Of a stretch of DNA of 64,000 bases, positions 5,407-30,736 are shown in pieces. Positions within the stretch are counted from its first letter, which is position 1. Each line of letters begins with the position of its first letter. The position numbers were made by a program, and so were the translations under genes. The notes beneath the pieces are model-generated. The model was not told where the DNA came from. It ran no database searches and saw only the letters and a program-made list of their open reading frames with translations. The stretch comes from a virus (taxonomy: Duplodnaviria; Caudoviricetes). Location of the stretch: the IMG/VR virus record IMGVR_UViG_3300037010_001838, one strand, 5' to 3'.

Positions 5407-5638
5407 TTGTGTGAAGCTGCAACCCATTTAATGTCCGAAAGAGTGGAAGATACACAAGCGGATTTAGTAGACGAGTTTACTGAACTATCAAAAAAACATA
5501 GGAACCACGCCGACTTCGTACGCTTGAAAAACAATTTGACAGAGGTATGAGGGATTTCAAAAAGGATATGAAAAAGATGACGAAGATTTGAAAAAATCTA
5601 AAGATTATGAAGTTGCAACAGTTATCTGTAAACTTTTG

Positions 5639-5667
5639 TTGACTTTCATAAATAAGTCATATATACT
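5639..5667 (+). promoter_or_regulatory. sigma70-type promoter of the leader/tRNA operon
   Basis: TTGACT-17 nt-TATACT. Confidence 0.85.
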
Positions 5668-5703
5668 TATAACACTAACTTAACAAACTTAAAGAATTTA
5701 CAA

Positions 5704-5805
5704 ATGTTCGATTCAACAAAACCAATTTTTATCAATAATGTAAACGTTAATAATAAACGTTCACACGCTGAGGCATTGACTGTTGAAATCAAACTAATCA
5801 TCTGA
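5704..5805 (+). CDS. putative attenuator leader peptide (33 aa, MFDSTKPIFINNVNVNNKRSHAEALTVEIKLII)
   Basis: Short ORF between promoter and terminator; codon run atc aat aat gta aac gtt aat aat aaa; too short for the ORF track. Confidence 0.7.
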   Translation: MFDSTKPIFINNVNVNNKRSHAEALTVEIKLII

Positions 5806-5833
5806 AAGTAAACAAAAGTTAATAGGCCTCGGC
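5767..5833 (+). promoter_or_regulatory. antiterminator helix
   Basis: gctgaggc-attgact (5767-5781) pairs with agttaat (5817-5823) + gcctcggc (5826-5833); 15 bp, 2-nt bulge; competes with the terminator 5' strand. Confidence 0.75.
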
Positions 5834-5858
5834 AGAGAAATCTCCCGAGGCTTTTTTT
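5826..5858 (+). terminator. rho-independent terminator (attenuator)
   Basis: gcctcgg-c-aga-gaaa-tct-c-ccgaggc followed by T7. Confidence 0.9.
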
Positions 5859-5878
5859 ATGTTCTTTAAAAATTTAAT

Positions 5879-5952
5879 AGTCCCTTAACTCAATGGTAGA
5901 GTGCTGTCGTGACATGGCAGATACAGAAGTTCAATTCTTCTAGGGACTACCA
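5879..5952 (+). tRNA. tRNA-Val(GAC)
   Basis: ctgtc-gtGACat-ggcag; acceptor agtccct/agggact; CCA. Confidence 0.85.
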
Positions 5953-5965
5953 AAGTTTCACTTGC

Positions 5966-6050
5966 TCCGGTCGGACTGGCTTGGTGAAGGTCTCGCACTG
6001 TTAATGCGAAGGCTCCGAAAGGAGGCGAGGTTCGATTCCTCGGACCGGAG
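5966..6050 (+). tRNA. tRNA-Asn(GTT) with long variable arm, no encoded CCA
   Basis: tcgca-ctGTTaa-tgcga; 16-nt variable region with ctcc-gaaa-ggag; acceptor tccggtc/gaccgga; G73. Confidence 0.85.
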
Positions 6051-6065
6051 CAAGTGGAATTTAAT

Positions 6066-6140
6066 GGGGTGTTAGTGTCAGCGGAAGCACAGAAGACTTT
6101 TAATCTTTTAGGCTGGATTCGAATTCCAGGCGCCCTACCA
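6066..6140 (+). tRNA. tRNA-Lys(TTT)
   Basis: gaaga-ctTTTaa-tcttt; acceptor ggggtgt/gcgccct; CCA. Confidence 0.88.
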
Positions 6141-6149
6141 AAATATAAT

Positions 6150-6223
6150 GCACCGCAAGCATTAAGGTGATGCAATAGGCTCTTACCCTGTAGAACACGG
6201 CTCAATACCGTGGCGGTGTACCA
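6150..6223 (+). tRNA. tRNA-Lys(CTT)
   Basis: atagg-ctCTTac-cctgt; T arm cacgg-ctcaata-ccgtg; acceptor gcaccgc/gcggtgt; CCA. Confidence 0.8.
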
Positions 6224-6228
6224 TATTT

Positions 6229-6312
6229 CCATCCGACACCGAACTGGTACGGTACGAGACTTTTAATCTCGCGTCTTTGACTATGAGGGTTCGAATCCCT
6301 CCGGGTGGACCA
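6229..6312 (+). tRNA. tRNA-Lys(TTT) with long variable arm
   Basis: cgaga-ctTTTaa-tctcg; 13-nt variable region c-gtc-ttt-gac-tat; A73; CCA. Confidence 0.85.
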
Positions 6313-7081: not shown

Positions 7082-7110
7082 TTGACCCTTTAATCGTTTC
7101 TGTATATAAT
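7082..7110 (+). promoter_or_regulatory. sigma70-type promoter of second tRNA cluster
   Basis: TTGACC-17-TATAAT. Confidence 0.85.
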
Positions 7111-7121
7111 ATTCCTTAATA

Positions 7122-7198
7122 TGTCCCGTTAGCTCAGTTGGATAGAGCACTTGTGTGACATGCAATATACGGCAGTTCAATTCTGCCGGGGACTACCA
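7122..7198 (+). tRNA. tRNA-Val(GAC), imperfect acceptor
   Basis: ttgt-gtGACat-gcaa; canonical D/T arms; two acceptor mismatches; CCA. Confidence 0.65.
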
Positions 7199-7211
7199 AA
7201 GTTTCAAGTGT

Positions 7212-7324
7212 TCCAGTTGAGCCGCGGGGTGTGGCAGCGGACTGATGCAAAAGCCCCTTCTAACGAGGAGGCTTTGATTAATCCGTGACGAAAGTCTAGT
7301 TTGGTTCGACACCAAAAACTGGAG
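7212..7324 (+). tRNA. tRNA-Asn(GTT)-like gene with a 33-nt hairpin insertion (7245-7277) in the anticodon
   Basis: Acceptor tccagtt/aactgga+G73; D stem gcc/ggc; anticodon stem gcgga/tccgt; ctg[insert]ttaa = ctGTTaa; variable arm gac-gaaa-gtc; T arm tttgg-ttcgaca-ccaaa. Confidence 0.7.
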
Positions 7325-7341
7325 CAGTTGGAATTTTATAT

Positions 7342-7455
7342 GGAGGTCTAGCCTAGTGGATAGGCACCGGACTTATTCGAGCATCTGCGAAATCGGGTGT
7401 TCCTGTTAATCCGGACCGTAATGGTATAGCGTGAGTTCGAATCTCCGGGCCTCTA
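7342..7455 (+). tRNA. tRNA-Lys(TTT)-like gene with a 31-nt hairpin insertion (7375-7405) in the anticodon
   Basis: Acceptor ggaggtc/ggcctct+A73; D stem gcct/aggc; anticodon stem ccgga/tccgg; ctt[insert]ttaa = ctTTTaa; variable arm acc-gtaat-ggt; TTCGAAT T loop. Confidence 0.7.
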
Positions 7456-8766: not shown

Positions 8767-9339
8767 TTAAGACGGTTTTGTAATTGATAAAAACACCTTC
8801 ATTATTTCAGGATCGAATTTAGTTCCAGTTTCTGTTTTTAAGGTTTCAATTGCTTCTTCGTGTGTCAATGAACAATGGTACGTTCTATGAGATACTAAAG
8901 CATCATATGCGTCAACAATACTAACAATTCGGGAATTTAGCGGGATATCCTTACCAACGAGTTGGTCGGGGTATCCTTCCCCGTTAAACCATTCGTGATG
9001 ATGCCGAACAATTGTTCCTGCTTCAATACACCCTTCAACACCCAAAGCATTGACAATCTGTTGACCAATAACTGTATGGGTTTTCATCTTCTCCCACTCT
9101 TTTTCAGTTAATGAAGATGTTTTTAATAAAATACTATCAGGTATCCCTATTTTTCCAATGTCATGAAAACATGCCCCCATTTTAAGAACATGAAAATCCT
9201 TTTCTGTAATCTTAAGTTCTTGTGCTAATAATCTCGCAAGTTCACACACTCGTTCAGAATGAAGTCCTGTAACGATGTCCCGTTCCTTTAATGCTAATGA
9301 TAAACTGTGGACAGTCGTGTCCAAAACTGTTTTCTTCAT
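8767..9339 (-). CDS. stand-alone HD-GYP phosphodiesterase
   Basis: HSERV, HDIGKIGIPDSILLK, HTVIG, HHEWFNGEGYP, SIVDAYDAL...R.Y. Confidence 0.92.
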   Translation of the reverse strand: MKKTVLDTTVHSLSLALKERDIVTGLHSERVCELARLLAQELKITEKDFHVLKMGACFHDIGKIGIPDSILLKTSSLTEKEWEKMKTHTVIGQQIVNALGVEGCIEAGTIVRHHHEWFNGEGYPDQLVGKDIPLNSRIVSIVDAYDALVSHRTYHCSLTHEEAIETLKTETGTKFDPEIMKVFLSITKPS

Positions 9340-29536: not shown

Positions 29537-30736
29537 CTACCACTTGTCCAAAGAACAAGTGGGGTCACCCAATGGCAACGCAATTCCTGTTTCATTGATA
29601 TTAGAATCAATATCTCTGCAGGCGTAAATTCGGCTAGTTCCCAGCCTATATAATTCAGATAACCCAAATGAACGAATATTAACAGCTGCATTAATGTCTC
29701 TATCGTGTTTAACGCCACATTCACAATCCCACTCTCTATCGTTCAGAGTTAGATTGTTGTTAAGCGTTCCGCACGATGAACACATTTTAGAACTAGGGGA
29801 GTATCTATCAATTTCAACTAATATTCCACCGGTTTCAGCTAATTTATGTTGGAGTTTTGTTTTAAATAACCCCCAACTAGCGGAACTGATTGATTTAGCC
29901 AATTTCCTGTTCTGAACCATGCCTTTAATATTCAGGTCTTCCATGCAAACAACTTGATAGTTTTTGGTTATCGAACTAACAAGTTTCCATTGGAAGTCTT
30001 TTCTTTGATTTGCCACATGTCTATGTAGCTTATTTAATTTCTTCTTTGCTTTTGTTCTATTTGAGCTACCTTTCACCTTTTTTGAGAGCGATTTCTGTTT
30101 GTGTTTTAACAGCTTTTCGCTCTTTTGAAGGTGTTTTGGGTTTGAATATTTAACACCTGTGTTAAGAACAGCAAAATCTTTGATTCCGACATCAATGCCA
30201 ATAACTTCTTGTTCTGTAAAGATATTTCTAACTGGAACGTCGGGTAATTCGCAGGTAATATATCCAAACCACTTATCATCGACGCATTTAACTACTATTC
30301 GTTTTGCTTTTCCCTCAAATTCTCGCTGTTTGTTGTATTTAATTCGACCAATTTTAGGTAATTTAATGCTTCTATTGCAAATATTAAAGTGTTGTGGCAC
30401 CGCAAATGTAGCAACTGATGTGTGTTTGCTTTTAAATTTAGGAAATCCCACTGCTTTCTTATTTTTAATTTTTCTGGTGATTGCGTTGTTTAAATTAATC
30501 ACTTGTTCTTGTAGAGATTGGCTGTTTGTCTCACTTAGCCAAGGATATGTTGCCTTCAGCTCAGGCAATAACTTGCTCATTTCAAAACGAAACACAAACT
30601 GCTTGTCAGCCTCATATTTCTTAATATTTAAATCAAGCATTTGGTTCCATAACCAACGAACAGAACCACAGTGTTGTTTGAACAACACAATTTGATCTTC
30701 ATTTGGTAACAATTGAACCTCAAAGGTTTTGATCAT
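29537..30736 (-). CDS. tnpB: TnpB RNA-guided endonuclease
   Basis: HTH N-terminus; RuvC GIDVGIKDF, CMEDL, DRDINAAVNI; Zn finger CSSC...CEC. Confidence 0.95.
   Translation of the reverse strand: MIKTFEVQLLPNEDQIVLFKQHCGSVRWLWNQMLDLNIKKYEADKQFVFRFEMSKLLPELKATYPWLSETNSQSLQEQVINLNNAITRKIKNKKAVGFPKFKSKHTSVATFAVPQHFNICNRSIKLPKIGRIKYNKQREFEGKAKRIVVKCVDDKWFGYITCELPDVPVRNIFTEQEVIGIDVGIKDFAVLNTGVKYSNPKHLQKSEKLLKHKQKSLSKKVKGSSNRTKAKKKLNKLHRHVANQRKDFQWKLVSSITKNYQVVCMEDLNIKGMVQNRKLAKSISSASWGLFKTKLQHKLAETGGILVEIDRYSPSSKMCSSCGTLNNNLTLNDREWDCECGVKHDRDINAAVNIRSFGLSELYRLGTSRIYACRDIDSNINETGIALPLGDPTCSLDKW

Follow-up and report, generated by a model that had tools for sequence, protein, structure and literature searches.

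A probable leader-peptide attenuator upstream of a Val-Asn-Lys tRNA array in a caudoviral genome, and its paralogous modules

The 64,000-nt stretch of the viral record IMGVR_UViG_3300037010_001838 (Caudoviricetes), here termed the window, contains a short leader with an open reading frame (ORF) in front of an array of five transfer RNA (tRNA) genes. This leader, referred to as module C, is likely to represent a ribosome-mediated transcription attenuator of the Val-Asn-Lys array and to belong to a regulon of four such modules, through which the phage would exert feedback on its own tRNA supply. The assignment is made from sequence features and folding models: (i) a predicted antiterminator that excludes the terminator, (ii) leader codons that correspond to the downstream tRNAs, and (iii) paralogous modules in related genomes, the leaders of which follow their respective arrays. 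Module C and its array comprise the following features:

5639-5667, + strand: near-consensus sigma70-type promoter, TTGACT-17-TATACT (10 of 12 consensus positions)
5691-5706, + strand: translation start region, a weak Shine-Dalgarno sequence (AAAGAA) followed by the conserved TTTACAAATG
5704-5805, + strand: leader ORF of 33 codons plus TGA stop, encoding MFDSTKPIFINNVNVNNKRSHAEALTVEIKLII and beginning 30 nt after the predicted transcription start
5734-5757, + strand: control codons 11-18, AAT AAT GTA AAC GTT AAT AAT AAA (N N V N V N N K)
5767-5781, + strand: predicted antiterminator 5' strand, inside the ORF (codons 22-26)
5817-5833, + strand: predicted antiterminator 3' strand, of which 5826-5833 doubles as the terminator 5' arm
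5826-5858, + strand: intrinsic terminator, GCCUCGG-C-AGA-GAAA-UCU-C-CCGAGGC (5826-5851) plus U7 (5852-5858), with a 7+3 bp stem and a GAAA loop (-15.8 kcal/mol)
5860-5875, + strand: boxA-like element TGTTCTTTAAAAATTT, between terminator and first tRNA, occurring once in the window
5879-6312, + strand: tRNA array Val-GAC, Asn-GTT, Lys-TTT, Lys-CTT, Lys-TTT (ARAGORN)

The elements named in a preliminary description of this locus are found in place, i.e., the 33-codon leader with its Asn/Val/Lys run (codons 11-18), the stop codon (5803-5805) downstream of the antiterminator segment, the strong terminator sharing its 5' arm with the partner strand, and tRNA-Val, -Asn, -Lys, -Lys and -Lys further downstream. 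The promoter, described there as consensus, is indeed present but only near-consensus. Transcription is predicted to start near 5674. A palindrome, TGACTT-N8-AAGTCA (5640-5659), covers part of the -35 box and the spacer and occurs only once in the window. The short ORF lies, with start codon and ribosome-binding site (weak in module C), just 3' of a promoter, and the intrinsic terminator is situated between this ORF and the tRNA genes. The terminator is missed by a simple terminator scan because of the loop-size limit of that scan. The gap between the U-tract and the first tRNA measures only 20 nt, which is too little for a promoter; the array should therefore depend on read-through of the terminator. 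Four of the five array tRNAs pass the Rfam tRNA threshold, while the Asn-GTT gene (86 nt, long variable arm) matches only the tRNA-Sec model (33 bits, below threshold). Regulatory codons for the tRNAs under its presumed control are over-represented in the leader, and seven of the eight control codons are readable by anticodons of the downstream array. A hairpin formed from two AACGTT copies (5739-5765) covers the control codons and makes no contact with the antiterminator.

The proposed pairing of 5767-5781 with 5817-5833 consists of 8 bp (5767-5774 with 5826-5833) and 7 bp (5775-5781 with 5817-5823). The helix contains a 2-nt bulge and two G.U pairs and has an energy of -18.5 kcal/mol including the 35-nt loop. 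As a duplex it reaches -19.8 kcal/mol, compared to -7.1 +/- 1.85 kcal/mol in dinucleotide shuffles of the upstream leader, none of which (0/2000) is as low; likewise, the terminator 5' arm is sequestered at P >= 0.9 in only 1 % of 500 shuffles. According to these statistics the antiterminator helix is not a chance match. It is mutually exclusive with the terminator, the 5' arm of which it occupies. Folding with and without a ribosome block, as suggested in the preliminary description, is uninformative for the full-length leader, where the terminator dominates in either case (P at least 0.93), but becomes informative for a transcript that ends ahead of the terminator 3' arm: without a ribosome, the antiterminator then forms with P = 0.996. 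When a 30-nt ribosome footprint is blocked at each codon of this truncated transcript, the antiterminator remains free for A-site positions at codons 2-17, drops by half at codon 18 and is lost at codons 19-28. Accordingly, the last codon at which stalling permits antitermination is the last Asn of the N/V/K run; in this model, a stall at the regulatory codons frees the antiterminator and a ribosome further downstream masks it.

Module C has paralogues in several related genomes. The near-identical record IMGVR_UViG_3300035181_001013 (179 kb; G002), the nearest one examined, carries four copies of the promoter with the palindrome TGACTT-N8-AAGTCA, each heading one module with the order promoter, Shine-Dalgarno sequence and TTTACAAATG, 31-33 codon ORF, terminator, TGTTCNTTAAMAATTT and tRNA array. 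IMGVR_UViG_3300020048_000168 (G003) contains A-, B- and D-type modules and IMGVR_UViG_3300035180_001563 (G004) one A-type module. The metagenome contig Ga0209958_1000078 (342 kb) harbours two further modules (types X and Y) with reshuffled arrays, and their leaders follow the arrays. The same promoter stands at the head of every module in these four sequences. Altogether, 11 modules of six types (A, B, C, D, X and Y) were analyzed, with leader ORFs of 18-34 codons. The modules of G002 and of the metagenome contig are:

G002, module D: leader MNTNGLGYCLSLGSLSILDKSQVAVWGITKM; array Cys, Leu, Gly, Ser and more
G002, module A: leader MIFTTFFTAFTTPEAWHAPEMAVCALEEGWKN; array Pro, Pro, Ala, Glu, Phe, Thr, His, Thr, Trp, Met, Thr, Ala
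G002, module B: leader MFVTRQQQSISIIRRRQVRRDSDIIMSGGWV; array Gln, Gln, Asp, Arg, Val, Ile, Asp, Arg, Arg, Arg
G002, module C: copy of the window leader; array Val, Asn, Lys, Lys, Lys
Ga0209958_1000078, one module: leader MFTLKSKSYCSKLLGGLS; array Gly, Gly, Tyr, Lys, Lys, Leu, Ser and more
Ga0209958_1000078, other module: leader MFTITTQIINRQMNIVVDRQDCEGTGFCVNF; array Val, Ile, Ile, Gln, Asp, Asp, Met, Asn

A terminator is present in all 11 modules, and in 10 of them, as long as the 3' arm has not been synthesized, the 5' arm pairs with a strand from the 3' part of the ORF (mostly P > 0.9). The duplex energy between a leader and its own terminator averages -14.6 kcal/mol, compared to -8.4 +/- 2.4 kcal/mol for cross-type combinations, and the own arm is better than every cross-type arm in 8 of 10 modules. 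Since the terminator stems vary by module type while each leader fits its own, this covariation among paralogues, which the preliminary description had named as a check, supports the predicted antiterminator. In the ribosome scan, the arm is sequestered with the ribosome on the control codons and freed past them in every module type (A, B, X and Y behaving like C). Module A of G002 additionally has a protector, with P = 0.05 without a ribosome and 0.8-0.9 with a stalled one. Module B was considered as a full 1:2 / 2:3 / 3:4 switch and rejected, as 1:2 and 2:3 coexist in the fold. The first nucleotide of the stop codon lies 23-42 nt 5' of the terminator stem in 11 of 11 modules. When a terminator lies near a stop codon, the ribosome represses it (PMC4824070), and measured against that statement the spacing should be wide enough for the terminators to act.

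The correspondence between leaders and arrays is most pronounced in the control region, defined as the leader part 5' of its antiterminator. Compared to the amino-acid usage of the phage (binomial p), the control residues matching isotypes of the own array amount to 8 of 16 in module C (p = 0.006), 17 of 18 in A (p = 7e-8) and 17 of 22 in B (p = 2e-6); the respective counts are 11/15, 10/13 and 12/18 in D, X and Y. The remainder of each leader ORF displays no enrichment for array isotypes. When leaders and arrays of G002 are permuted, the true pairing ranks first among 24, matching 53 of 71 control codons (mean 18.75); after addition of both Ga0209958_1000078 modules, only 2 of 720 permutations come up to the observed value. 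The match extends to synonymous codons: ACG/ACT/ACA/ACC for Thr stand against array anticodons CGT, GGT and TGT, AGA/CGC/CGA/CGT for Arg against TCT, ACG and TCG, and CAA/CAG for Gln against TTG and CTG. Such varied synonymous codons, matching distinct anticodons of the arrays, point to sensing of tRNA species rather than amino acids. Together, the footprint model, the own terminator/antiterminator pairs and the array-tracking leaders of the paralogues strongly support the earlier proposal of a leader-peptide attenuator controlling a tRNA operon with matched codons.

Natural variants were obtained from contigs of four metagenome runs (microbial mat, sediment) and compared with the window. The leader of G002 differs from that of the window at 2 positions, both synonymous, and the G002 alleles are present in the contigs of the four runs. 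The exchange 5769 T>C found in relatives converts an antiterminator U.G to a C-G pair and thereby strengthens the helix. A further variant, 5695 A>G, changes AAAGAA to the AAAGGA of paralogous Shine-Dalgarno sequences and occurs together with the synonymous 5764 C>T. One diverged contig, which matches only from 5749 on, differs at 5788-5804 by a 3-nt insertion and 8 substitutions, keeping the reading frame and the stop position with TAA in place of TGA; no counterpart of this C-type variant was found in IMG/VR.

From these features we infer leader translation, kinetics, Nus recruitment and the physiological trigger, which would combine as follows. Host RNA polymerase would start at the sigma70 promoter and synthesize a 185-nt leader, the 33-codon ORF of which would be translated by a ribosome. 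Slow decoding of codons 11-18 would keep this ribosome 5' of 5767, so that the exposed 5767-5781 strand could pair with 5817-5833 on its emergence, remove the terminator 5' arm and let the polymerase continue. Past the terminator, boxA would probably recruit host Nus factors, and the Val-Asn-Lys-Lys-Lys tRNAs would then be transcribed. In case of fast decoding, the ribosome would reside on or past 5767-5781 (codons 19-28), the hairpin 5826-5851 would form with U7 and transcription would stop. Because the array tRNAs read the control codons, such a circuit would amount to negative feedback on tRNA supply. The data support slow decoding of Asn/Val/Lys codons in general as the signal. Cleavage of host tRNAs by anticodon nucleases, envisaged in the preliminary description, is only one possible trigger, with the demand of AT-rich phage mRNA or decay of host tRNAs fitting equally well. 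By extension, it appears reasonably plausible that the whole tRNA complement of giant phages is managed as a closed-loop supply with codon resolution: the leader of each block would poll its own codons, one synonymous codon per anticodon, and switch the block on only when its own tRNA species are short, while a shared operator and a host-type boxA would add regulon-level control and processivity.

Several observations weigh against module C as such an attenuator. The geometry of the his/trp/thr/ilv attenuators, claimed in the preliminary description, is not matched in full: no 1:2 protector hairpin exists in the folds of module C, and its stop codon, instead of overlapping the antiterminator 5' strand, follows it at a distance of 22 nt. 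Lacking a protector, an untranslated leader is predicted to read through, unlike in trp and his. The protector/pause hairpin is a feature of the trp/his archetype and not required by the mechanism of attenuation as such. Judged by the footprint alone, a ribosome at codons 30-34 leaves the antiterminator unmasked (P about 0.9-1.0); with a ribosome parked at the stop codon not masking it, termination would depend on timing or steric exclusion. The equilibrium favours the terminator form over the best antiterminator form by 9.3 kcal/mol, so that antitermination must be kinetic, as in classical attenuators. The Shine-Dalgarno sequence AAAGAA is the weakest of the family, AAAGGA, AAGGAG or TGGAGA occupying this position in the paralogues (start contexts of 11 modules). 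Among the control codons, GTA is not decoded by the Val-GAC of the array, and over the whole ORF of module C the N/V/K enrichment is modest (11/32, p = 0.03). Long variable arms in two of the five array tRNAs render their charging identity uncertain. The comparison of C-type leaders is shallow, comprising near-identical copies and one partial variant, and a search of RNA runs found none containing the stretch.

Three other explanations have to be considered. A genuine switch could be set by an RNA-binding protein, a small RNA (sRNA) or T-box-like binding of uncharged tRNA, the ORF being incidental. The antiterminator as default fold without a ribosome and the weak Shine-Dalgarno sequence of module C would agree with this, and the palindromic operator in the promoter suggests that at least one protein regulator probably acts on the modules. 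However, open frames with the conserved start context occur in 6 of 6 module types (a 31-codon open frame being expected in about 10 % per type at this composition), the leader composition follows the array (p down to 7e-8), the switch occurs just where the matching codons end, the natural indel keeps the reading frame, and no Rfam T-box or riboswitch model matches, rendering a switch independent of the ribosome very improbable. Scarcely more credible is an independent small gene, in which promoter, ORF and terminator produce a micropeptide or a 185-nt sRNA while the tRNAs arise from constitutive leak or upstream transcription. Such a unit would have its own promoter and strong terminator, as is the case here; action in trans is reported for an attenuator RNA and leader peptide (Sinorhizobium rnTrpL/peTrpL), and A-type leaders have conserved peptide segments (e.g., AWHAP and VCAL). 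These segments coincide with RNA helices, however, and substitutions in the A-type control region exchange one array isotype for another, which is in keeping with selection for the codon class and not for the peptide sequence. Moreover, the array depends on read-through in view of the 20-nt gap without room for a promoter, and the match between leader and array would be left unexplained.

The remaining alternative retains the attenuation mechanism and replaces the signal: amino-acid starvation or general translation capacity would be sensed instead of the tRNA level, and depletion by nucleases would play no special role. A stalled ribosome cannot distinguish absent from uncharged tRNA and, as untranslated module C defaults to read-through, a global block of initiation would also switch it on. 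Extra tRNA, on the other hand, gives no relief from amino-acid starvation, and polling of synonymous codons to match distinct array anticodons is only sensible for the sensing of tRNA species; this alternative is therefore considered unlikely. If any one of the three were to prove correct, this would be a mild surprise, and ribosome-mediated attenuation in response to tRNA supply is retained as the preferred interpretation.

The element TGTTCTTTAAAAATTT between terminator and first tRNA has counterparts in the other modules. In G002 the motif occurs exactly 4 times, once after each attenuator terminator, and the 18-mer of modules A and B, CTGTTCATTAAAAATTTG, is present in many bacterial genomes. 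The same motif is located between the spacer tRNAs and the 23S gene in 4 of 4 rrn loci checked (Pseudomonas, Stutzerimonas and two Polynucleobacter). It also resembles the boxA of E. coli, TGCTCTTTAACAA. On account of motif identity and the position in the 16S-23S spacer, TGTTCTTTAAAAATTT is accepted as an rrn-type boxA; identity with the bacterial rrn boxA is combined with a position ahead of untranslated RNA genes. Its probable effect is a polymerase that withstands Rho and pausing along the untranslated array, and the motif hints at a beta- or gamma-proteobacterial host. Given sigma70-type promoters and a proteobacterial boxA, the modules should be directly testable in laboratory strains. 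Many unrelated viral contigs share the motif in front of tRNA arrays: outside G002, CTGTTCATTAAAAATTTG is found about 30 nt 5' of the first array tRNA in 11 of 14 matched viral contigs, usually directly behind a TTGACA/TATAAT promoter, so boxA use for phage tRNA arrays looks widespread. In the contigs L038/L047, L040/L042 and L037/L046/L049, an ORF of about 33 codons and a terminator with a complementary upstream strand precede a promoter-boxA-tRNA-Gln arrangement; here, non-homologous attenuators may be present, each with a second promoter behind it.

For about 50 years, compensation for codon usage has been considered as the role of phage tRNA genes, to which counter-defence was added more recently. 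To our knowledge, little has been reported on how a phage decides when to make its tRNAs. Among known systems, the ilv, thr, trp, his, leu and pheA leaders share with the present modules a promoter-proximal short ORF rich in regulatory codons, at which stalling frees an antiterminator, and a terminator 5' arm shared with an antiterminator strand in or beside the ORF. The ilvGMEDA (Ile/Leu/Val) and thr (Thr/Ile) leaders are nearest in logic, since one leader likewise polls several amino acids. In contrast to all of these amino-acid operon leaders, the presumed targets here are tRNAs, i.e., products that decode the control codons, rather than biosynthetic enzymes, and synonymous codons are diversified to suit different anticodons. 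Module C, unlike module A of G002, also lacks a 1:2 protector or pause hairpin, and the modules are phage-borne, in sets of four jointly covering nearly all amino acids. A match to the His_leader model (RF00514) at 5729-5860 was dismissed, as its 30.1 bits (threshold 49) stem mostly from the terminator and provide no evidence of homology; Phe_leader (RF01859) scores 16.3 bits (threshold 55), and the gathering thresholds of the Rfam leader families are not reached.

The leader pheM of E. coli pheST represents a leader-peptide attenuator of a decoding component that responds to the supply of charged tRNA. Its target is the mRNA of an aminoacyl-tRNA synthetase and one amino acid is concerned, compared to an untranslated tRNA array with several isotypes in the present case. 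T-box riboswitches of Gram-positive bacteria also report the state of a specific tRNA by a terminator/antiterminator choice. They differ in binding uncharged tRNA directly, via a specifier codon and a conserved T-box sequence and without translation, and in targeting synthetase or amino-acid genes; here, no T-box model matches and a conserved ORF is present. The boxA/Nus antitermination of rrn operons has the motif ahead of long untranslated RNA genes as well, the difference being that the predicted site of the phage stands behind an attenuator. An attenuator-like leader of E. coli tRNA-Phe genes was considered as a precedent and discarded, pheV of MG1655 having a promoter directly before the tRNA and no leader.

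Full-text literature searches yielded no account of tRNA genes being under attenuation control, either in phages or in bacteria. Thus, the class of mechanism is known from leader-peptide attenuators, while its use for the control of a tRNA array appears undescribed in the literature searched. If true, this would be the first attenuation system with the sensed molecule itself as output, a textbook mechanism of amino-acid operons recruited to non-coding genes with product and signal being the same molecule. Phage tRNA supply would be actively regulated, one isotype block at a time, and the modules would be small, portable devices that sense how fast chosen codons are decoded, and could serve to report the depletion of tRNAs by anticodon nucleases. 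Phage tRNAs are reported to rescue infection from tRNA-cleaving defences, e.g., the T5 tRNA-Lys against PARIS (PMC11464382) and tRNAs of mycobacteriophages (PMC10264068). These cases are alike in that phage-encoded tRNAs, including Lys, supply the cell when host tRNAs fail; demand-sensing control of the tRNA genes does not appear in the title and abstract of either article.

Further observations concern the paralogous modules. No homologue of leaders A, B or C is present in cultured phages, as judged from 50,697 GenBank phage records. In G003, the slot equivalent to module C (G003:C1:1-2551) is occupied by a D-like leader with Gly, Leu, Ser, Cys and Tyr codons, and an ORF is inserted between the terminator of this leader and boxA, indicating that modules are exchanged and interrupted between phages. 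A GAAA tetraloop caps five terminator hairpins (modules C, D_G002, A_G003, B_G003 and X_Ga). The D array region of G002 encodes a tRNA with the anticodon CTA (G002:C1:46568-46641), which is amber-reading and labelled Pyl by ARAGORN. Another phage group (7 contigs: L027, L029-L033 and L036) shares the palindromic promoter (TTGACTTTCCTTAGAAAGTCATATATACT), located within its tRNA region and driving an ORF of about 80 codons and a terminator before the next tRNAs rather than a short codon-matched leader.

With respect to the surroundings of module C in the window, long, type-II-like variable arms are found in Asn-GTT (5966-6051, 86 nt), Lys-TTT (6229-6312, 84 nt) and, outside the array, Ile-GAT (906-990, 85 nt), which makes it uncertain with which amino acid each of the three is charged. 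A second near-consensus promoter, TTGACC-17-TATAAT (7082-7110), lies directly 5' of a further Val-GAC tRNA (7122-7198), followed by two tRNA-like genes with about 31-33 nt inserted in the anticodon loop. The region 7082-7455 thereby forms a second V/N/K set outside the attenuator control; for its counterpart, ARAGORN detects no tRNA 3' of the homologous ORF in the G002 flank examined. An inverted repeat of 23 nt (5626-5648 / 5803-5825, 20 of 23 bp) encloses the whole leader including the -35 box. Roles as an RNase III site or in insulation from upstream read-through were considered for it and dropped, since the repeat is not competitive when longer transcripts are folded (P = 0.003-0.17). A stand-alone HD-GYP-like protein is encoded at 8767-9339 (- strand), antisense to its neighbours. 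The ORF at 29537-30736 (- strand) has OrfB_IS605, Cas12f1-like TNB and HTH_OrfB_IS605 domains and corresponds to a TnpB-type transposon nuclease within the phage genome.

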